A program made the position numbers and the translations under genes. DNA of 24,000 bases from Oceanispirochaeta sp. (GTDB taxonomy: Bacteria > Spirochaetota > Spirochaetia > DSM-2461), in NCBI GenBank assembly GCA_963663385.2, contig CAXXXD010000003.1, positions 999,471 to 1,023,470 of the forward strand. Direction: 5' to 3'. The notes beneath the pieces are model-generated. The model was not told the DNA's origin, made no database searches, and saw nothing but the letters and a program-made list of their open reading frames with translations. The first letter of the stretch is position 1, and each line of letters starts with the position of its first letter. Shown in pieces: positions 13,221 to 23,004 of this stretch.

Positions 13221-15407
13221 ATGTATCCGTCGGGGAGGATTGGTATCAAACGTTTCGGTTTGAAGAAAAACTTCATTCAGACAAATTTTTTAATAACCCT
13301 CGGAATATTGTTGATGGTAGTGCTGTCATTTGGCTATTTATGGATAAAGGATAATTTAAAAAACTACGATAGAGAAATCCGGTATATCGAGCAGCTGTAT
13401 ATTGATGCCAAAAAAGCCCAGATTAAGGATAACACAGAAAATACCATGAACTATATCAAGTCAGTGGAGGAATCCCTTGGACCGGATATCCAGTATGAAC
13501 TGAAATCTCAGGTGGATAAGGCTTTTCAGTTTGTCCGAGCTGCCTATGAAAACATGGCCGATACGGTAACGGGAGAAGAAATCAGCTCCATTGTTGCCGA
13601 AACATTGAGACTGCAGCGTTTTGATAATAATCCGGGATATTTCTTTATATACCGGATGGATGGGTTCTGCCTTCTGAATACAGCTGATTCCCGGCTTGAA
13701 AATACATATGACTCATTTCATTACAGAGATATAAATGGCGCGTATCCCTTAAAATCCATGATTGAACTCCTTGAAACTGACAATGAAGGTTACTTTGATT
13801 ACTATTATATAAAACCGGGCGGAAGCAGTCAGGAGGCCAAAAAATCCTATATCAGGAAATTTGAAGCTCTGGACTGGTTCCTGGGTTGCGGGATGTATAT
13901 TGATTCTATTCAGCTGGCAAAACAAAACGAAGTTCTGCGGACAGTAAGAGAGGACCATCTTATCAATCAGGAACCCTACAGGATTTTCGATACACAGTAT
14001 AACTGCCTTCTTGATCCCTATCATCCGGCCAACGAAGGCAGGAACATAAAGGAGATAGACGACAGGGCGGTTTTTGAAATCCTGCAGGGAACAGTAGCTT
14101 CCCTGGGAACAGATGGAGCAATCCGAAGCCGGTTCTGGGATGACCGGGGGACTCCGGACAGAGAAAACCGGAATATAACCTATACATCCGTATTCCCCGA
14201 ATGGAACTGGATTATTATCGCCGAAGATTCCCTTTATGATATTGAATATTATGTGGCATTGAAAAAACGTGAGCTGAAAGGCTCTATCCTTAACAAGATA
14301 CGTCGTGTCTTTGTATTAATGATTCTCTCCATGGGAACAGCCGCCTTCCTGTTTCACAAAATGTCCCGGCATTTTAAAAGAAGCATTGAACTCTTTATGC
14401 AGTTTTTAAAAAAAGCCAGCAGGGAAAATGTTCTGATCGATACAGGACAGATCCATTATGATGAGTTCAAACTGCTCTCCCGGATGGCAAACAGAATGGT
14501 AAAAAATCTGAAATCCACCCAGGAAGAGTTAAATCAAAGCCGTACTTTTTATCAGCATATACTGGATACATCCCCCATTATCTTTTATGTCAAAGATGAA
14601 AAGGGAGCCTTTATTCAGGTTAACGACGCCTTTGTAAAGATCAGCAGTACAGGCAGGGACGGGATTATCGGTCAGAGCAACGCCGGTATATTCCAAAAGG
14701 CGGATGCCGCTGAATGGAATGCAATCGATAACAGGGTGCATCAGACAGGGGTGGAAGAATCTCATGAATTAAGTCTGATGGTTAAGGGGGAGCCCCACAC
14801 CTTTCTGAAATATTACTCTCCGGTCTATCGAAACGATAAAAAAACGGTGGATTATGCAGGCTGGGCAATAGATATTACAGACCGCAAGGAAATCGAATCC
14901 AGACTGGAGGAGAGCGAACTGAGGCTGAAGAAAATCATAAGCTGCATTGATACGGGAATTATAATCATTGATCCGGAAACCCGCAGGATAACTGATGCAA
15001 ATCCGGCAGCGGTAAGGATGTTCGGGGCTTCCAGGAAAAACCTGATAGGACAGATGTGTCATAACCATATCTGCCCGCGCGAGTATGAGAACTGCCCTAT
15101 TCTGGACAGGCATCAGAAAATCAACAAAACGGAAGCCGGCTTTATTACCAGTACGGGAGAAGCCCTTCCCATTATGAAAACAATTGTACCGATTACGATT
15201 AAGGGGAAAAATCTGCTGCTGGAGAGTTTCTATGATTTGAGCAGGCAGAAGGAGGCTGAGCAGAAGCTGAAACTCAATATCAGGGAACTGGAAGAGTTCA
15301 ACCGTTTTACTATTAACAGAGAGGAGCGGATGATTGAACTGAAACAGGAAATAAACCAATTATATGCCCGGATGAATAAGGGTATAAAGTATAAGATTGT
15401 CATGTGA
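13221..15407 (+). CDS. Membrane sensor: TM - double Cache-like periplasmic domain - TM - HAMP-like linker - 2 PAS domains - coiled coil; no recognisable output domain
   Basis: Two hydrophobic segments (FLITLGILLMVVLSFGYLW; VFVLMILSMGTAAFLF) bracket ~300 aa with a Cache signature (GYFFIYRMDGFCLLN). PAS S-box-like segments follow (ILDTSPIIFYVKDEKG...; IDTGIIIIDPETRRITDANPAA). The C-terminal coiled coil is LEEFNRFTINREERMIELKQEINQL. Confidence 0.85.
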   Translation: MYPSGRIGIKRFGLKKNFIQTNFLITLGILLMVVLSFGYLWIKDNLKNYDREIRYIEQLYIDAKKAQIKDNTENTMNYIKSVEESLGPDIQYELKSQVDKAFQFVRAAYENMADTVTGEEISSIVAETLRLQRFDNNPGYFFIYRMDGFCLLNTADSRLENTYDSFHYRDINGAYPLKSMIELLETDNEGYFDYYYIKPGGSSQEAKKSYIRKFEALDWFLGCGMYIDSIQLAKQNEVLRTVREDHLINQEPYRIFDTQYNCLLDPYHPANEGRNIKEIDDRAVFEILQGTVASLGTDGAIRSRFWDDRGTPDRENRNITYTSVFPEWNWIIIAEDSLYDIEYYVALKKRELKGSILNKIRRVFVLMILSMGTAAFLFHKMSRHFKRSIELFMQFLKKASRENVLIDTGQIHYDEFKLLSRMANRMVKNLKSTQEELNQSRTFYQHILDTSPIIFYVKDEKGAFIQVNDAFVKISSTGRDGIIGQSNAGIFQKADAAEWNAIDNRVHQTGVEESHELSLMVKGEPHTFLKYYSPVYRNDKKTVDYAGWAIDITDRKEIESRLEESELRLKKIISCIDTGIIIIDPETRRITDANPAAVRMFGASRKNLIGQMCHNHICPREYENCPILDRHQKINKTEAGFITSTGEALPIMKTIVPITIKGKNLLLESFYDLSRQKEAEQKLKLNIRELEEFNRFTINREERMIELKQEINQLYARMNKGIKYKIVM

Positions 15408-15421
15408 TAAGGAGCCTTGTT

Positions 15422-16225
15422 ATGAAGAAAAGTGTACGGGAAGATTCTCTGGGAGATGAACTGTCAAATAAAGTACTGGATCAGCTTCCTACGCCGGTAA
15501 TGGCTATAGATAAAGATTATAATTTAATTTTTATGAATCAGGCCGGATTTAACTTTCTGGGAAGAAGCTGGGACGAAATAGCCGGGAAAAAATGTTATGA
15601 TGTTTTCTGTTCAGAGCACTGTGGAACGGATGATTGTCGCATGCGCGCTGTTATGAAGGGAGAAGATCCTGAAACAGTCAGAAATAACATTAAAATCAAA
15701 GATACGGTAGTGCCAATCGAGTATACGGCGGACTCTCTGAAAGACAGTGAGGGGAATGCTATCGGCGGGCTGGAGTATATTATCGATATTACTGAAACTG
15801 TAAAAAAAGAGCAGAAACTTAAACAGCAGAGCAGAACCATTATGGAAATCTCCACACCGGTTATCAAGCTTTGGGATAGAATCCTTATTCTTCCGATTGT
15901 GGGTGTGGTGGATTCTTTCCGGGCTATGCAGATGATGGATACCATGCTGAACAAACTGAAGGAAACTTCATCAAAAATCATTATTCTGGATATTCAGGGT
16001 GTGGCGGCAGTCGATACGGCAGTGGCGAACCACCTGATAAAGATTGCAAAAGCAACCAGGCTTATGGGTTGTCAGTGTATTATTTCCGGAATATCTCCTG
16101 CAGTCGCGCAGACCCTTGTACAGCTGGGAATTGAAATGGTGAATATTCTGACCACATCGGATTTGCAGGAAGCTCTTGCTGACGCTTTTGAAATAATGAA
16201 TTTTGAAGTAAAGAAGAGGGAATGA
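15422..16225 (+). CDS. RsbR-like stressosome protein (N-terminal PAS sensor + C-terminal STAS)
   Basis: AAGGAG lies 7 nt before ATG 15422. The STAS block STPVIKLWDRILILPIVGVVDSFRA...ILDIQGVAAVDTAVANH...GISPAVAQTLVQLGI closely follows the RsbR C-domain pattern. S165 and T199 sit 34 residues apart, like B. subtilis T171/T205. Confidence 0.88.
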   Translation: MKKSVREDSLGDELSNKVLDQLPTPVMAIDKDYNLIFMNQAGFNFLGRSWDEIAGKKCYDVFCSEHCGTDDCRMRAVMKGEDPETVRNNIKIKDTVVPIEYTADSLKDSEGNAIGGLEYIIDITETVKKEQKLKQQSRTIMEISTPVIKLWDRILILPIVGVVDSFRAMQMMDTMLNKLKETSSKIIILDIQGVAAVDTAVANHLIKIAKATRLMGCQCIISGISPAVAQTLVQLGIEMVNILTTSDLQEALADAFEIMNFEVKKRE

Positions 16226-16229
16226 AAAA

Positions 16230-16625
16230 TTGAGTCTGGATAATTTCAATAATAGTGAAGATTTACTCAATATAGGACTATATGAAATGGGTTTTTCCTT
16301 GATTGTTCCTGTTCCGGACATGATTGATCCAAGGTCTGCCGGGAAAATGCTGCAGAAAGTTATGCAGGAGATAGACAGGAGAAGATACAGGAAAGTTGTT
16401 ATCGATATTTCTGCCGTTTCTGTTCTGGACAGGATGTCATTTAAAATACTGCAGGATATTGCTAAAGGAGCGGAGCTTATGGGAGCCAGGACAGTATTCA
16501 TCGGAGTTCAGCCGGGGGTTGCCTCTGCTATGGTGGAACTTGTAGCGGATGTGGATACAATTGTCAGCGCTCCGACATTGAATGAAGGTCTCGCCATACT
16601 GGAAGGAAATCATGGTAATGGGTAG
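16230..16625 (+). CDS. RsbS-like single-STAS protein
   Basis: TTG start 4 nt after the upstream stop. VVIDISAVSVLDRMSFKILQDIAKGAELMGARTVFIGVQPGVASAMVEL aligns without gaps to the RsbS/RsbR STAS core. Confidence 0.85.
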   Translation: MSLDNFNNSEDLLNIGLYEMGFSLIVPVPDMIDPRSAGKMLQKVMQEIDRRRYRKVVIDISAVSVLDRMSFKILQDIAKGAELMGARTVFIGVQPGVASAMVELVADVDTIVSAPTLNEGLAILEGNHGNG

Positions 16626-17043
16626 GGATAAAAACTGCCTGACCGAGATTTGTGAAACCATTGAAGATTCGGCAGATGTGGCAAATGTTGTTATCCTTGC
16701 CAGAGAATTTGCCGCGGATCTGGGATTCTCTCAAACAGATCAGCATCTGGTTGCTACGGCTGTTTCGGAATTGACTACCAATATTGTGCATTATGCAGGC
16801 AGGGGGAAACTGACGATACAGGAGATCTCATCGCCGAAAAATGTCGGCCTTCAGATTATCTGTGAGGATAGGGGGCCGGGAATCGCTGATATAGAAATGG
16901 CGTTAACCGACGAATATTCCACAGGAGAGAGTCTTGGTATGGGTTTACCCAGTGTTAAGAGACTCATGGATTATTTTGAAATAGAAACTGAACCTCAGGC
17001 AGGAACGCGCGTTATGATCCGGAAGTGGAGAGATTCCAATTGA
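16612..17043 (+). CDS. RsbT-like anti-sigma-type serine protein kinase (GHKL/HATPase_c_2)
   Basis: ATG 16612 follows GGAAGGA and overlaps the RsbS-like gene by 14 nt. N box SELTTNIVHYA, G1 EDRGPGI, G2 GMGLPSVKRLMD. Confidence 0.88.
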   Translation: MVMGRDKNCLTEICETIEDSADVANVVILAREFAADLGFSQTDQHLVATAVSELTTNIVHYAGRGKLTIQEISSPKNVGLQIICEDRGPGIADIEMALTDEYSTGESLGMGLPSVKRLMDYFEIETEPQAGTRVMIRKWRDSN

Positions 17044-17627
17044 ACAAGGTGGATTATGCCTCCGGGAAAGAATCCATTTACGGCCCTGATGAAGTGGAAT
17101 GCGGTGATGCGGTTCTCATCCTTCCGGATGAGGAATCTGTGTTTTTAGCCCTGATCGACGCTTTGGGGCACGGAGCAAAGGCTTATGAAGCAGCATGCCT
17201 GGCCGTCAGTTTTTTAGAACAGCACTATAAAGAGCCGCTCCCTGAACTGATGAAACAGCTTCATATCCATCTGCAGGGGTCCAGAGGTGTTGTCGCCGGT
17301 CTGTGCAGGATTCATGTTGCCGAGGGATACCTTGATTATGTAGGAGTGGGGAATATCAGCACAAGAATTTATGGTGAGGAGAAACAGTTTCTTCTTTCAA
17401 AGGATGGTGTCGTTGGTTTTTCCATGACCGAGCCGCATGAAATTCAGGTTGTTCTCAGGGAAAATGATCTGCTTATTCTTACGTCGGACGGGATTAAGGA
17501 TCTTTTTCCCCTGGAAGAATATCCGGATATTCTGCGGGGAAAATCGGAGAATGTTGTTCAATTCATAATGAAGCAATTCCGCAAGTTTGATGATGCTTCC
17601 TGTATTGTTTTGAGGTATAAAAAATGA
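17025..17627 (+). CDS. RsbX-like PP2C/SpoIIE-family phosphatase
   Basis: ECGDAVLI, IDALGHGAKA, LTSDGI and DDASCIVL motifs. The start is GTG 17025 or TTG 17040, which overlaps the upstream TGA. Confidence 0.8.
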   Translation: MERFQLNKVDYASGKESIYGPDEVECGDAVLILPDEESVFLALIDALGHGAKAYEAACLAVSFLEQHYKEPLPELMKQLHIHLQGSRGVVAGLCRIHVAEGYLDYVGVGNISTRIYGEEKQFLLSKDGVVGFSMTEPHEIQVVLRENDLLILTSDGIKDLFPLEEYPDILRGKSENVVQFIMKQFRKFDDASCIVLRYKK

Positions 17628-20600
17628 AAACGGAACTGGTAACCTTTGCTCCTGCCAACATGATTCCCATGAGTCTCCTGCGGCGGAAGATACTTCACCT
17701 TTGCCAGGATCTGGGATTTTCGCAAATTCAGGCGGTTCGAATCACTACTGTATTCTCGGAACTGGCTGAACAGGATTCACAGTACTATCTTTCCCGTAGA
17801 ATCACCCTTTCTCTCAAAAGGAAATCCATCCAGAATGACCTGTCACCTGCCCTTGTATTCTCTATAAAAAAATCAAGCCTGGATTTTCCGGATTCTATAG
17901 CTTCTCATTTTTTTAATGAATTCACTGTAAAGGAAACAGGGCCGGGGCTCTTTATGATAGAAGCTGTGAAGTACTTTCCTTCGGAGGTTTCCTATCCGGA
18001 CGAAAAGAGTATCAGCAGGTGGCGAAAAGCTCTTTCTGAACCGACAAAAGATGCCCTGTTCAAAGAGCTGGAGTTGAATAACCGTAAACTGGAAAAACAG
18101 GCAGATGAACTGATTTATGCAAAAAACAATGCCGAGAAAACAGCGGATGAACTGAAAATCCGTATTGATGATCTGGCCAAGGCCCGTACAGCCATGCTGA
18201 ATGTTATGGAAGATCTCGATTTAAGCAAAGCCAGTATGCAGGCTCTTATCGATTCCCTGCCGGATGTTACCATTATTTATGATGAAAACGGTTACTATCG
18301 TAATATATACCTTAGCAGAGATGAAAACTCACAAAATAACCAGTTAAACGGTATAACCGATATCAACGAGTTAATAGGAAAAAGTATCCGAGATGTGATG
18401 ACCGGGGAAACGGCCGATCTGATTCAGGCTTCCATCACCAGGGCTATAGAGGAGAAGAAAACCGTTCAAATGGAGTATTCCCTGGATACAGATTCAGGGA
18501 TTATCTGGTATGACGGGAGATTCTCCTCCATGAATACCCTGGATGCCGGTCTGGGACTGGTCGTCTGTGTTGTCAGGGACATTACAACTCTTAAAAAACT
18601 GACCAGTGATCTGGAGAATGCCAAAGAAGAAGCCATTGCCGCCACCAAAGCGAAAGGGGATTTCCTTGCGAATATGAGCCATGAAATCCGAACCCCCATG
18701 AATGCCATAATCGGCTTGAACAGTCTGCTGATTAAAACGGATATGACCCCAAAACAACAGGACTATACAGAGAAAATCGGAAAATCCGCCAGGAGCCTTT
18801 TGGGGATTATCAACGATATCCTGGATTTTTCCAAAATCGAAGCAGGGAAGATGGATATAGAAAAAACAAATTTCCTGTTAAGCGATGTTCTGGAAAATCT
18901 TCTGAATATTATTGGCGACAGGGTCCGGGATAACGGATCGGAGCTTATATTTAAACAGGATCTGACCATACCGAACAATTTGATCGGAGACCCTCTCCGT
19001 CTGGGACAGATTCTGCTGAATCTGACCAACAATGCTGTGAAATTCACCGAAAAGGGCGAGATTGTTGTTTCTACAAAACTGGAAAAAAAAGTAGATAATT
19101 CGGTCTATATCAAATTCAGTGTAAGCGACACTGGTATAGGGTTAACCGAAGAACAGCAGAATAAACTGTTTAAATCGTTTTCACAGGCAGACACTTCAAC
19201 CACCAGAAAATACGGAGGTACAGGACTAGGTCTGGCTATCAGTAAAAAGCTTTCCGAGTTGATGGAAGGCAGTATCGGGGTGAAAAGTAAATCCGGGAAG
19301 GGGAGTACTTTTTATTTCACAGTCAGGATGGGGGTTGGTGAAGAAAAGACCCGGAGGACTGTTCCCCGGGATCTGAACGGTCTGCATGTTCTCGTGGTGG
19401 ACGATAACGAAACAGCCCGGGAAGTGATTACTTCCTATCTGGAGGACTTCTGCCTCTCCGTGACAGAAGTATCCGGAGGGAAACTTGCCCTAAGGGAGCT
19501 GAATCAGGCCAAAGCGGCAGAAAACAGGGATTACGACCTGGTCCTGATGGACTATCAGATGCCCGATCTTAATGGTATTGAAACTTCCAGGCAGATCCGG
19601 GAGGGGCTTGAGAATATCAGGCAGCCAAAAATTATAATGATTACAGGATTCGGCCGGGAAGAGGTAATGAAACAGGCCGCCGGAATGGGCCTGGACGGGT
19701 TTCTGATAAAACCTGTCAGCCCTTCCATTCTGTTCGATACGATTATGGAAGTTTTTGGAAAGGGTCATGGTATGTCCGTAAGGAAAAAGAGGGCCGAAGA
19801 CTCCAGGCCGGAAAACTTCCGTCTGATTCAGGGGGCCCGGATCCTTCTGGCAGAGGATAATCCTATCAATCAGCAGGTGGCTCTGGAAACAATGGAACAG
19901 GAGGGGTTCCGTATCGATATTGTTAATAACGGTAAAGAGGCTGTAGACAGAATCAGCCTGGATTATGATTGTGTCCTTATGGATCTACAGATGCCGGTTA
20001 TGGATGGTTATCAGGCTACGTCGGAGATACGAAAGAATCCCGAATACGCGGATATGCCCATTATCGCCATGACCGCGGATGCCATGGTGGGTGTTAAGGA
20101 ACGTGTTATCAGTGAAGGGCTGAACGATTATATTACCAAGCCCTTTGATCCTGCCATGTTGTGGGAAACTCTGATGAACTGGATCAAACCGGGGAACCGC
20201 CCTCTGCCCGAGAATTATAGGACTGCCTCTGAAAAAGGCAATCATGATGGACCGGATATTCCTCCCATAAAAGGAGTTGATCTGGCTGACGGCCTCAAGC
20301 GGGTAGGAGGCAATAAAAGGCTGTACAGGGATCTGCTTGTTCAGTTTGCCAGGGATAACGGTTCGGTTACGAATGAGATACAGGATTGTTTGTCCAGAAA
20401 TGATATCAGGAGTGCGGAGAGACTGGCTCATACCATTAAAAGTGTAGCGGGAAATATCGGCGCTCATTCTCTGCAGAATAAGGCTGAAAGTCTGGAATGC
20501 GAACTGAAAAAATGGACGAGTCATCTTGAACCTGAAATTCTGAATGATTTTGATTTCCATCTGCATAAAGTGACTGAAGCCATAACGCAGGCCTGTCCGG

Positions 20601-20860
20601 GTGAGGATGAACAGGATATTGTTGAGGTAGAGGTGGTTTCTGATGATGTTCTGAAACCTCTACTGGACACTTTGGGGCCTTTTCTTAAAAAGAAAATGGC
20701 TGTTAAATGCAAGGCTGTTCTTAGGGAGATTGAACAGTATCGATACTCAGCGGACAGACAGAATTCCATAGAAGAGCTTTCCTCCATGATCAGGAGGTAC
20801 AACTACCACGATGCGGAAGACCTGCTCCATAATCTGATGGATGAGATAGACTGTTCCTGA
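17624..20860 (+). CDS. Hybrid sensor histidine kinase: degenerate RsbT-like N-domain - coiled coil - PAS - HisKA - HATPase_c - REC - REC - HPt - C-terminal helical extension
   Basis: ATGA overlap with the upstream stop. H box ANMSHEIRTPMN (His codon 18680-18682), N/G boxes (LLNLTNNAVKFT, DTGIG, GGTGLGL), REC Asp codons 19550-19552 and 19982-19984, HPt HTIKSVAGNIGA (His codon 20429-20431). Confidence 0.93.
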   Translation: MKTELVTFAPANMIPMSLLRRKILHLCQDLGFSQIQAVRITTVFSELAEQDSQYYLSRRITLSLKRKSIQNDLSPALVFSIKKSSLDFPDSIASHFFNEFTVKETGPGLFMIEAVKYFPSEVSYPDEKSISRWRKALSEPTKDALFKELELNNRKLEKQADELIYAKNNAEKTADELKIRIDDLAKARTAMLNVMEDLDLSKASMQALIDSLPDVTIIYDENGYYRNIYLSRDENSQNNQLNGITDINELIGKSIRDVMTGETADLIQASITRAIEEKKTVQMEYSLDTDSGIIWYDGRFSSMNTLDAGLGLVVCVVRDITTLKKLTSDLENAKEEAIAATKAKGDFLANMSHEIRTPMNAIIGLNSLLIKTDMTPKQQDYTEKIGKSARSLLGIINDILDFSKIEAGKMDIEKTNFLLSDVLENLLNIIGDRVRDNGSELIFKQDLTIPNNLIGDPLRLGQILLNLTNNAVKFTEKGEIVVSTKLEKKVDNSVYIKFSVSDTGIGLTEEQQNKLFKSFSQADTSTTRKYGGTGLGLAISKKLSELMEGSIGVKSKSGKGSTFYFTVRMGVGEEKTRRTVPRDLNGLHVLVVDDNETAREVITSYLEDFCLSVTEVSGGKLALRELNQAKAAENRDYDLVLMDYQMPDLNGIETSRQIREGLENIRQPKIIMITGFGREEVMKQAAGMGLDGFLIKPVSPSILFDTIMEVFGKGHGMSVRKKRAEDSRPENFRLIQGARILLAEDNPINQQVALETMEQEGFRIDIVNNGKEAVDRISLDYDCVLMDLQMPVMDGYQATSEIRKNPEYADMPIIAMTADAMVGVKERVISEGLNDYITKPFDPAMLWETLMNWIKPGNRPLPENYRTASEKGNHDGPDIPPIKGVDLADGLKRVGGNKRLYRDLLVQFARDNGSVTNEIQDCLSRNDIRSAERLAHTIKSVAGNIGAHSLQNKAESLECELKKWTSHLEPEILNDFDFHLHKVTEAITQACPGEDEQDIVEVEVVSDDVLKPLLDTLGPFLKKKMAVKCKAVLREIEQYRYSADRQNSIEELSSMIRRYNYHDAEDLLHNLMDEIDCS

Positions 20861-21138
20861 ATCGTTCGGGAAATAAATCCGATACCCTGGAAAAAACAGG
20901 GCTTTATGCCTCTTTACTAACTAATTCAACAATGCGCTGGCTGGCAAATCTTTTTGCCTGGTCACCCACTTTTGCCTTACTGATTCTTTTTAAAAAATAA
21001 GACCTGATATGTCATTGAAGGATTTTAAATAGCGGAATTACAATCAGTGCAGCGAAGCAGGCCCTCCGGGAAGGATCAGTATTTGCTCAACTCTAAAGAA
21101 CCTTTCCTTATAAAGGTATGACCTGTTACATCCCAAGA

Positions 21139-21167
21139 TTGACCACCACTGTTCATATCTTTATATT
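21139..21167 (+). promoter_or_regulatory. Sigma-70-like promoter for the OMP/S41 pair
   Basis: TTGACC (21139-21144), 17 nt, then TATATT (21162-21167). The ATG is at 21177, only 9 nt after the -10. Confidence 0.45.
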
Positions 21168-21176
21168 TCTCCCCAC

Positions 21177-21983
21177 ATGAAAAATACCTGCAAACCATTT
21201 ATATTGTTTCTGTTTCTGCTGATACTCCCCCTTTGTATTCTGGCACCCCTGTTTGGCGGAGAGCAGAAAAAAGCCCCTGTCCACGGGCTCAGCTTAACAA
21301 CGGCTTTTCTCAACCCCAACTTCTCGGACCCTTTGGTCACACCCTTTCATACCCACGGTATGGGAGCCGGACTGGAACTGGCCTACACCCTGAGAATGTC
21401 CTCCTTTGCCCTGGATACAGGCTTTGCAGGAGGGGGAGGGCGGCTCTACAGCGGCAACTCCAACTTCTACGATCATGACGACTCCTTCGGCACGGCCTCC
21501 TTTTATATCAACACAGCCTGGCGGCGGTCAGTGATTGTGGAGAAAGCCTTCCTGCTGGCAGGACTGCGGACGGAATATCAGGGAGAAGTCTACCTTATCA
21601 GCCATATTGATTCGTATAACTGGAACGGGGACCTCTCATTTATGCCCTTTGCAGGCCTGGAGTACAATTTTTCCCGGAGCAGGCTCACCAGCTCCCTGGC
21701 GTTTTCGCTCTTCAGCCTGGTCAACCGTCCCCCCTGGACCATCTACGACGATGACCTGGATGCCCGGATGAGTGAGTCCCCCCTGTCCGTGCTCTTCAGA
21801 GGAGACTCCTCCGGTATTGATAAATACTTCAGAATGGTCTATGACCTCCACTGGGAGACAGAACTGTCCCGTCATTTTATCCTTATAAGCGGCGGATCCT
21901 TTCAATACATCAGAACCACCTTACCCCAGGAGGCAAAGTTTCTGACCGCCTCCGCAGACCTGGGAGTACGCTATGTTTTCTAA
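21177..21983 (+). CDS. Outer-membrane beta-barrel protein (unknown family)
   Basis: Signal peptide MKNTCKPFILFLFLLILPLCILAPLFG, alternating beta-strand pattern, and a C-terminal OMP-type ending GVRYVF. Confidence 0.7.
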   Translation: MKNTCKPFILFLFLLILPLCILAPLFGGEQKKAPVHGLSLTTAFLNPNFSDPLVTPFHTHGMGAGLELAYTLRMSSFALDTGFAGGGGRLYSGNSNFYDHDDSFGTASFYINTAWRRSVIVEKAFLLAGLRTEYQGEVYLISHIDSYNWNGDLSFMPFAGLEYNFSRSRLTSSLAFSLFSLVNRPPWTIYDDDLDARMSESPLSVLFRGDSSGIDKYFRMVYDLHWETELSRHFILISGGSFQYIRTTLPQEAKFLTASADLGVRYVF

Positions 21984-23004
21984 GTATGTAAAATTCCTTC
22001 TCCTTCCCCTGTGCTTCCTCCTGGCGGGCAGCTGCTCTCTGGTGCTGGGACCCGAAACGGGATCGGACAACGGATCGGTTTTCGATTATTTCTGGGACAC
22101 CTTCGACAAACAGTACTCCCTGTTCGAGCAGAAGGGGATCGACTGGGATGCTCAGAGAGAAACCTACCGGGATCAGGCCGTGTCTGCCCCCACAGAGGAT
22201 GCCCTGTTTGATGTCCTTGCGGAGATGATCGAACCAATGGACGATGCCCATGTCTGGCTTTCCGGTACAGGCGGGTATCCCTACTGCGATACCTGGGAAG
22301 AGCCGGGGATTCCCTCCCTCTGGTACAGCTTCTCCCTCTACGGTGTCCGGGAGTATACCGGGCCCCTCAGCCAGACCGCCGGGGATCTTGTCTCCTACGG
22401 TATACTCGCAGAGCGGAACATCGGCTATATCCATATCTCTTCCATGGCCGCCGATCTGGGGGGGATGACCACTCTGGAATCCTGGGTAGACGATGTCGAC
22501 AGGGTTATTGACCAGTACATGGATACGGATGCCCTGATTATAGATATCCGGAATAATACCGGCGGCTACAGCGCCAATGCCCGGCACATCGCCTCCCGCT
22601 TTGTCTCTCACAAAAGTCTCTACCTGAAAACCAGAACGAGAGTCGGTCCCGACCATAATGATTTCGGTACCGTCACCGATCACTACATCGAACCTCGGGG
22701 GCAGATTTACACTAAACCGGTTTACCTGGTGACCGATCCCCGGACCGTCAGTGCCGCCGAGTGGTTTACCCTGATGATGAGGAAAAGTGACAATGTGACC
22801 CATATCGGCTGGCGGACTACAGGCGCCACGGGAATGGTCTCCTTTCATGAACTTCCCAACGGCTGGGAGTTTTCCACCACTATTGGTTACACCACCGATG
22901 AAGAGGGCCGATGCTACGAAGGAACGGGTATTCAGCCGGAAATCGTCATTCCCTATGATCCCTCCGAAGCGGACAGTGTCCTGGCGTGGATTATGAATCA
23001 GTAG
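21973..23004 (+). CDS. S41-family serine peptidase, probable lipoprotein
   Basis: Signal plus lipobox-like LLAGSC. S41 motifs IIDIRNNTGGY and VYLVTDPRTVSAAEWF. Overlaps the upstream OMP gene by 11 nt. Confidence 0.8.
   Translation: MFSKYVKFLLLPLCFLLAGSCSLVLGPETGSDNGSVFDYFWDTFDKQYSLFEQKGIDWDAQRETYRDQAVSAPTEDALFDVLAEMIEPMDDAHVWLSGTGGYPYCDTWEEPGIPSLWYSFSLYGVREYTGPLSQTAGDLVSYGILAERNIGYIHISSMAADLGGMTTLESWVDDVDRVIDQYMDTDALIIDIRNNTGGYSANARHIASRFVSHKSLYLKTRTRVGPDHNDFGTVTDHYIEPRGQIYTKPVYLVTDPRTVSAAEWFTLMMRKSDNVTHIGWRTTGATGMVSFHELPNGWEFSTTIGYTTDEEGRCYEGTGIQPEIVIPYDPSEADSVLAWIMNQ

Follow-up and report, generated by a model that had tools for sequence, protein, structure and literature searches.

A degenerate RsbT-like domain in the place of RsbU_N: a putative stressosome input module on a hybrid histidine kinase of Oceanispirochaeta

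In the closest described systems, the stressosome reaches its output enzyme through RsbU_N (PF08673), the domain to which the switch kinase RsbT binds. RsbU_N and the coiled-coil linker that follows it are exchangeable among PPM phosphatase, GGDEF and histidine kinase effectors (PMC12143880). The domain is a four-helix bundle and is found at the N-terminus of RsbU of Bacillus subtilis, of the GGDEF protein MtG of Moorella, and of the RsbU_N histidine kinases of operons encoding RsbR, RsbS, RsbT and RsbX (RSTX operons), in each case encoded by the first gene after RsbX or RsbT. Signal output of the stressosome outside the Bacillales is an acknowledged gap. Most proteins encoded downstream of rsbRSTX, including VvD1 (VV2_0077) of Vibrio vulnificus, lack RsbU_N (Heinz et al. 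2022). Here we describe a 24,000-nucleotide stretch of DNA from Oceanispirochaeta sp. (contig CAXXXD010000003.1, positions 999,471 to 1,023,470; hereafter the window), in which a complete RSTX module (15404-17627) with a Pfam match for each of RsbR, RsbS, RsbT and RsbX is followed by the gene of a hybrid histidine kinase (17624-20860, + strand, 1078 aa, ATG start). Residues 1-120 of this kinase (17624-17983) are very probably a homologue of the RsbT-type GHKL kinases that has lost catalysis, which we call the pseudo-RsbT domain. Positions are those of the window throughout.

A preliminary description of the window had pointed out that a DLGFSQ...SEL segment of the kinase N-terminus matches the RsbT-like protein encoded two genes upstream, ungapped. 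The match is present, and BLASTP of kinase residues 1-159 against that protein aligned DLGFSQIQAVRITTVFSELAEQ... with DLGFSQTDQHLVATAVSELTTN... without gaps, at 12/34 identical positions (pairwise E = 6e-4). A Smith-Waterman shuffle test of the pair gave z = 4.9, the observed score being reached by 2 of 2000 shuffles. Taken alone, the pairwise match between the two sequences is suggestive and weakly significant. The match becomes decisive when profiles are compared: hhalign of 11 N-domains against 29 RsbTs gave a probability of 97.6% and E = 3.2e-12 over 110 columns, pairing N-domain 6-115 with RsbT 6-134, and recovered the second pair of segments that had been singled out before, FFNEFTVKETGPGLFMIEAVK and LMDYFEIETEPQAGTRVMIRK. 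An 18-member N-domain alignment trimmed to the domain gave P = 9e-13 against RsbT, and the runs overall ranged over probabilities of 97.6-97.8%, P values of 9e-13 to 3e-12 and 106-115 columns. In control alignments, the N-domain profile against the catalytic HATPase_c of the same kinases gave P = 0.02, and against STAS, PP2C, receiver and reversed profiles P = 0.2-0.6. The hits are reciprocal: a hidden Markov model (HMM) of the N-domain matches bona fide RsbTs over its first half, with up to 38-51 bits, and an RsbT HMM matches the N-domains as a hit distinct from the catalytic domain.

The domain had been called a copy of the neighbouring RsbT. Homology is borne out, but 'copy' overstates the relationship, as the N-domain HMM gives a median of 28-30 bits with canonical RsbTs and 12.6 bits with the partner RsbTs of the domain's own loci. 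By this measure canonical RsbTs are closer to the domain than its own partner is, and the domain is therefore an old paralogue rather than the product of a recent local duplication. Five other HATPase_c_2 paralogues encoded in the loci scored 11-32 bits with the same HMM, against the median of 28-30 bits for canonical RsbTs; this comparison with the five locus paralogues weakly suggests that the domain may lie nearer to RsbT than to RsbW.

Standard domain searches pass over the region. A Pfam scan of the whole kinase found no match on residues 1-200, and no NCBIfam model covered the domain in the NCBIfam search. The Pfam models PF13581 and PF02518 had no match in the domain in any of 11 family members, even at E <= 10, and the domain stays below their gathering scores. 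What the Pfam, NCBIfam, single-sequence PDB and profile-against-PDB-sequence searches did return (DUF772, an RNA polymerase subunit, TnsE and an antibody chain) had E > 0.01 throughout and was set aside as not meaningful. A first AlphaFold model, built from the single sequence, was discarded as too poor, with a predicted local distance difference test score (pLDDT) of 64, the ten-residue blocks of the domain scoring 41-72. The model of the domain built from the alignment reached pLDDT 83 and a predicted template modelling score (pTM) of 0.75. It consists of a strand (2-8), a helix (16-29) carrying Arg20, a second helix (34-49), strands 59-69 and 72-84, a short helix (92-96), and strands 99-106 and 109-117. 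Ser45-Glu46 is kept in helix 34-49, Gln50 stands at the position of the N-box Asn, and Phe96-Phe97 lies at the short helix. The domain is thus predicted by the model to have the alpha/beta sandwich topology of the GHKL (Bergerat) fold. The interval first assigned to it (17624-18010, residues 1-129) does cover the domain, whose last strand in the model ends at residue 117.

When the model was compared with the PDB by Foldseek, the eight best matches, all at probability 1.0 and with E = 8e-4 to 9e-3, were chains of RsbW, SpoIIAB and UsfX. Next in rank came a LOV histidine kinase, matched through its ATPase domain, and then unrelated folds at probability <0.35; another chain of the same LOV kinase had probability 0.60. 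The domain shares with RsbT, RsbW, SpoIIAB and UsfX (HATPase_c_2) a homologous profile, the predicted fold, the helix-1 Arg, and the Ser-Glu of the N-box helix. It differs from them in that they are free-standing proteins of 130-160 aa recognised by Pfam, whereas the pseudo-RsbT domain is the N-terminal domain of a large effector and falls below Pfam thresholds. That the similarity to RsbT arose by chance or convergence, the domain being no GHKL homologue, would agree with the empty Pfam, NCBIfam and HMM-against-PDB-sequence searches and with the shortness of the pairwise match at E = 6e-4. It is hard to reconcile with a profile-profile P of ∼1e-12 accompanied by clean negative controls, with the reciprocal HMM hits, or with an independent fold prediction that puts anti-sigma GHKL kinases first, and we consider it extremely improbable. 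The earlier suggestion of a degenerate RsbT-type domain without an ATP site is borne out by this specific profile similarity together with the RsbW/SpoIIAB-type fold in first place.

The residues that serve ATP binding in RsbT are gone from the domain. The N-box Asn, present in 85/85 RsbTs, is found in 0/18 family members and is replaced by Gln50 in the window; the N-box Glu is retained in 14 of the 18. A single deletion of 19 residues, which is the sole gap in the hhalign alignment and lies after Lys83-Ser84 and before Ser85 (17873-17878), takes out GPGIADIEMALTDEYSTGE of RsbT, that is, the G1 glycines (DxGxG box) and the ATP lid. The G2 box of RsbT (GMGLP; GxGL) aligns with LDFPD, which is unconserved in the family. 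The N-box change, the loss of G1 and the deletion of the lid had all been seen in the preliminary description, which also had G2 deleted; it is instead substituted. With N-box Asn, G1 and G2 absent and the ATP lid deleted, the domain cannot be a kinase, and its sequence identifies it as a pseudokinase, a pseudo-GHKL domain unable to bind ATP.

The family to which the domain belongs is rare and widely dispersed, and our sample of it is small (∼35 sequences). A word-indexed homologue search with kinase residues 1-200 found no match. When phmmer was run exhaustively against 1.8 billion cluster representatives, it gave 12 hits, two of them artefacts: the two top hits, P0001 and P0002 (2350 and 1175 aa), are perfect tandem-repeat translations with units of ∼58 and ∼87 aa, and were dropped as non-homologous because their scores sum weak repeated matches. 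The other ten all match at the extreme N-terminus (residues 3-143) and are histidine kinases or fragments of them. A profile search gave 13 hits, comprising 12 new cluster representatives and one already known, mostly short fragments and all unnamed or 'hypothetical'. In the databases, with their 1.8 billion proteins, the family accounts for about 12 clusters (50% identity), yet it spans at least six phyla. Its consensus has the start 'MIELG', the helix-1 Arg, LGF, a second helix reading ATRLAT-x(2)-SEL in which Thr42 and Ser45 are nearly invariant, and an invariant Phe-Phe; the linker carries PSR-x-ELL-x(2)-L-x(2)-KN-x-EL, or in its wider form P-[ST]-[RK]-x-[EA]-L-x(3)-L-x(2)-[KN]-N-x(2)-L. 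The kinase start at 17624 appears correct, as the N-terminus aligns with the 'MIELG...' N-termini of the homologues. Rather than being absent or unconserved in related operons, the domain recurs in Spirochaetota, Desulfobacterota, Myxococcota, Gammaproteobacteria including a Vibrio, Cyanobacteria, and a metagenome-assembled genome (MAG) of Clostridium.

Several kinds of effector are fused to the domain and its linker: HisKA directly (from ∼165-200), PAS-HisKA as in the window, a small non-hybrid kinase, and a PPM/SpoIIE phosphatase. The last occurs in three cyanobacteria, Caldora, Brasilonema and a Coleofasciculaceae MAG (L078 8043-9263, L049 5885-7219 and L043 8105-9412), and is the architecture of RsbU with another N-domain; the fusion in L078 sits after genes for protoglobin-STAS, STAS, RsbT and RsbX. 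The flanks of these PPM fusions that were checked showed no RsbV/RsbW-like substrate pair. A small kinase is found in L088 (1240-5064), where two single-STAS genes, RsbT and RsbX precede a pseudo-RsbT histidine kinase of 407 aa, a receiver and a KaiB homologue. In two loci (L001 8001-9217 and L004 1760-2979) the domain and linker form an open reading frame (ORF) of their own (186-188 aa), followed by a 217-aa HisKA-HATPase_c ORF. The first ORF of L001 already includes the H-box, a hint of a frameshift or of an error in the assembly; that of L004 has no HisKA match, so its split of domain and kinase may be real. One further protein, P0012 (259 aa), joins the pseudo-RsbT domain and a coiled coil to a stretch resembling the C-terminal membrane segment of a type II secretion/pilus platform protein (...MIEPFMMVFLGVVIGG...) and is probably a chimeric contig or a mis-call; a T2SSF fragment also lies upstream in L001.

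The position of the domain within its loci is that of RsbU_N. When family members were looked up by protein, seven of eight lay directly after RsbR-RsbS-RsbT-RsbX, with a PAS or a protoglobin sensor on RsbR. We then scanned all ORFs of the 80 genome loci whose RsbT is most similar to that of the window, the closest being an Oceanispirochaeta MAG with 54% RsbT identity. The full domain starts the gene downstream of RsbT in 14 of the 80, a gene that immediately follows RsbX wherever a single-domain RsbX exists; these loci are from Oceanispirochaeta, a Spirochaetales MAG, Desulfobacter and other Desulfobacterota, delta- and gammaproteobacterial MAGs, Vibrio sp. Of14-4, a Clostridium MAG and the three cyanobacteria. 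RsbU_N, detected with a local HMM, starts the gene in the same slot in 32/80 loci, where it is fused to HisKA_3 or HisKA kinases, to PAS-GAF-HD-GYP or to HD domains. The remaining loci are truncated or lack RsbX. The two domains occur together in none of the 80 loci: the local RsbU_N HMM misses every domain-bearing locus, and Pfam finds no PF08673 match in the domain, either in the window kinase or in the family members. The earlier proposal that the kinase carries this domain instead of an RsbU-type N-domain therefore agrees with the survey, in which the slot holds one or the other and never both. Like RsbU_N, the domain feeds through a helical linker into a dimeric effector, is swapped between PPM phosphatases and histidine kinases, and belongs to complete RsbR-S-T(-X) loci; it differs in being predicted to have an alpha/beta GHKL fold and not a four-helix bundle. 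We regard it as likely that the domain receives the signal from the stressosome and serves as its input module, as a functional replacement for RsbU_N.

Alternatively, the domain could serve dimerisation or be a sensor in its own right, physically unconnected to the stressosome and adjoining RSTX by co-inheritance only. RsbW and SpoIIAB are homodimers and the kinase needs a dimeric N-terminus, which would suit such a role, as would the one member that was not found after an RSTX module, P0005 (L085 1-2461), in which the 394 bases of contig visible upstream hold a 59-aa GerE fragment and no RsbX; a receiver gene lies 3' of this kinase. Co-inheritance only would have to account for an association with RSTX that spans at least six phyla and more than one kind of RsbR sensor (PAS, protoglobin), for the mutual exclusion of the domain and RsbU_N in one slot, and for a dedicated RsbT clade with an altered partner-binding helix, described below. 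We hold this alternative to be improbable.

In a neighbour-joining tree of 85 RsbTs, all 19 from loci with the domain fall in one clade (28/30 bootstraps), which also holds three RsbTs whose contigs stop short of the downstream gene, and no RsbU_N-type RsbT. In the passage of PMC12143880 that cites Hardwick 2007, Arg19, Arg23 and Asn24 of RsbT are implicated in the binding of RsbU. The position of B. subtilis Arg19 is Arg in 63/63 of the other RsbTs and in 0/19 of those from domain loci, which have V, I, S or L; the window RsbT has Val. Here lies a further difference from RsbU_N systems, in that the partners of the pseudo-RsbT domain lack the Arg19 required for RsbU_N binding. The residue after it changes from Gln/Thr to a hydrophobic residue in the domain-locus RsbTs, and Arg23 is kept as Arg or Lys. 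The Arg19 difference emerged on direct inspection of known contact positions; under a 70% rule, a scan for columns differing sharply between partner types turned up K/R at a single column and nothing else. Where RsbT has Arg19 and SpoIIAB Arg20, the pseudo-RsbT domain carries Arg in 15/18 members (Arg20 in the window). Judged from these alignments, the domain has kept the ancestral features of helices 1 and 2, and the partner RsbT has changed them; the co-variation is suggestive of co-evolution.

On balance we favour an explanation in which the dead RsbT paralogue, with its linker and coiled coil, forms the input module through which RsbR-RsbS-RsbT-RsbX controls the output enzyme. Under stress, RsbT would phosphorylate the STAS scaffold and depart. 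Free RsbT would then bind the dimeric pseudo-RsbT domain and/or the linker, making contact through its helix-1 face, the one that is hydrophobic in the clade of domain partners. Binding would alter the conformation or rigidity of the coiled coil leading into the PAS and the dimerisation and histidine phosphotransfer helices, and this change would switch autophosphorylation and the phosphorelay through the two receivers and the histidine phosphotransfer (Hpt) domain; RsbX would reset the scaffold. Binding of released RsbT is favoured on grounds of parsimony with the RsbT-RsbU pair, with indirect support from the co-varying RsbT clade, and we put forward RsbT as the direct ligand of the domain tentatively, at close to even chances.

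The retained features of the domain also bear on a different arrangement, in which it is a decoy that binds the unphosphorylated STAS domains of RsbS and RsbR and competes there with RsbT. Phosphorylation of the scaffold by RsbT would then release or activate the output kinase or PPM phosphatase; RsbT would act only as the STAS kinase, and the stressosome would hold its own output enzyme, with a dead paralogue of the switch kinase as cargo. Partner-facing residues are indeed kept in the domain, namely the Arg (15/18) and the N-box Glu (14/18), and the cognate RsbTs are without that Arg (0/19); helices 1-2 of the domain are also nearer to canonical RsbTs than its own RsbT is (28-30 versus 12.6 bits). 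A dimeric kinase would offer two domains to a STAS dimer, and docking of this kind fits the reported failure to detect an interaction between RsbT and VvD1 of V. vulnificus. The Arg, though, is not diagnostic of STAS binding, because RsbT must bind STAS without it. Moreover, the ATP lid and the G2 region supply much of the STAS contact in SpoIIAB-SpoIIAA complexes, and these are the parts that are deleted or replaced in the domain, which furthermore sits in the exact slot of RsbU_N, a domain that binds RsbT and not STAS. Docking on the STAS scaffold and pairing with released RsbT were the two possibilities offered in the preliminary description; we judge STAS docking to be unlikely, though it is the chief competitor of the reading favoured here.

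Heinz et al. 2022 proposed that RsbT phosphorylates downstream kinases lacking RsbU_N. Transferred to the present locus, RsbT would phosphorylate the domain or the kinase on Ser/Thr in a transient encounter, with the pseudo-RsbT fold as a docking or substrate platform only. The idea has the merit of having been published for such loci and is compatible with no stable interaction, and the near-invariance of Thr42 and Ser45 could be read in its favour. Both residues, however, are inherited from the RsbT motif ATAVSEL and so are more likely structural, and the family alignment contains no new conserved Ser/Thr motif. To our knowledge, the known substrates of RsbT-type kinases are STAS domains and not GHKL folds. 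This alternative, too, appears improbable.

A number of observations weigh against control of the kinase by RSTX through the domain, or at least do not help it. The template modelling scores of the eight best Foldseek matches are moderate (0.44-0.64). P0005 is without a visible RsbX, as noted above. All the domain-locus RsbTs fall in one clade, so that the co-variation with the domain counts as one observation and not as nineteen. No response regulator gene is apparent 3' of the hybrid kinase in the window (20861-21176, 21177-21983). Finally, no positive interaction between RsbT and VvD1 of V. vulnificus was obtained by Heinz et al. 2022, VvD1 being assigned to the domain family only by inference. 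VvD1 resembles the kinase of the window as a hybrid kinase encoded after rsbRSTX, by a gene of similar size (>3.18 kb), with a PAS domain and no RsbU_N, and differs in that its RsbR is globin-coupled and that of the window PAS-coupled. A Vibrio that does carry the domain is Vibrio sp. Of14-4, whose locus (L019) encodes a hybrid kinase without PAS and then a protein with a receiver and an HD-GYP domain (REC-HD-GYP).

Behind the domain, a linker helix (residues 127-138) and a long signalling helix or coiled coil (142-199), assigned from predicted secondary structure and conservation, occupy 18002-18223 and lead into a PAS domain (residues 205-324; 18236-18595; Pfam PAS_4, E = 6e-6). The kinase core (18650-19330) comprises HisKA 343-408 (E = 6e-22) and a catalytically intact HATPase_c 455-569 (E = 3e-29), and the phosphorelay tail (19364-20563) two receivers, at ∼581-709 and 740-849 (Response_reg, two stretches, E = 3.5e-49), and an Hpt domain at 903-980 (E = 2.8e-8). 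Pfam thus finds in the product of 17624-20860 all of HisKA, HATPase_c, receiver and Hpt that make a hybrid histidine kinase.

On the + strand, the genes form a tightly packed operon with overlapping or closely spaced ORFs, in the order sensor, RsbR, RsbS, RsbT, RsbX, hybrid kinase. RsbR is a PAS-STAS protein (15404-16225; PAS_4, E = 6.5e-13; STAS, E = 1e-16) and RsbS a single STAS protein (16230-16625; E = 4e-9). The RsbT-like serine kinase, whose N, G1 and G2 boxes are all intact, is encoded at 16618-17043 (HATPase_c_2, E = 8e-12); its ORF as listed opens at ATG 16582, overlapping RsbS by 44 bases, and the database protein P0025 (141 aa, 100% match) starts at Met13 of that ORF (16618), where the overlap is 8 bases. 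RsbX is a single-domain PP2C phosphatase of 200 aa (17025-17627; SpoIIE, E = 2e-9), whose stop codon overlaps the kinase start. The first gene (13221-15407) encodes a membrane sensor of 728 aa, dCache_2-transmembrane-PAS-PAS (dCache_2, E = 2e-53, plus PAS), with a coiled coil at its end and no output domain. It probably belongs to the operon, since its stop codon and the start of RsbR overlap. Four related loci (L002, L005, L021 and L041) have a counterpart of its PAS and C-terminal region (residues ∼440-727) just upstream of RsbR, and on this ground the protein may be an accessory extracytoplasmic sensor that feeds the stressosome.

The ORF next after the kinase opens with a signal-peptide-like hydrophobic stretch, and the G+C content climbs from 0.45 to 0.50-0.56; in related loci (L004, L019 and L087) a REC-HD-GYP gene lies directly 3' of the kinase. 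Farther on, at 21910-23004, two ORFs overlap on opposite strands (312 aa, minus, 21910-22848; 343 aa, plus, 21973-23004) in the G+C-richest part of the window (0.56), and one of them is presumably spurious.

Modules of RsbRST followed by two-component systems are already known, and the present finding is best described as a domain family that is new itself but occupies an established position in an established pathway. No RsbT-like or pseudokinase N-domain was described for these proteins in the literature searched, in agreement with the preliminary description, which knew of no report of the coupling; many subscription-journal papers lay outside that search, so an earlier mention is possible. 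A distant parallel is DivL of Caulobacter, a pseudo-histidine-kinase that has lost catalysis and retains the kinase fold for signalling through protein contacts. It belongs to another kinase class and another pathway, whereas the kinase of which the pseudo-RsbT domain is a paralogue is the very one that signals upstream of it. Downstream proteins without RsbU_N gain a defined, conserved, RsbT-derived input domain and, to match it, an RsbT clade with an altered partner-binding helix, which suggests how stress-sensing operons hand their signal to two-component systems. With the domain, the 'exchangeable toolkit' of stressosome outputs gains a second module, unrelated in structure to the first. 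Were STAS docking to prove true, it would explain the absent RsbT-VvD1 interaction in Vibrio and would amount to partner switching with the dead paralogue as cargo. The family exemplifies how a dead paralogue of a signalling kinase appears to have become the receiver of that kinase's own pathway.

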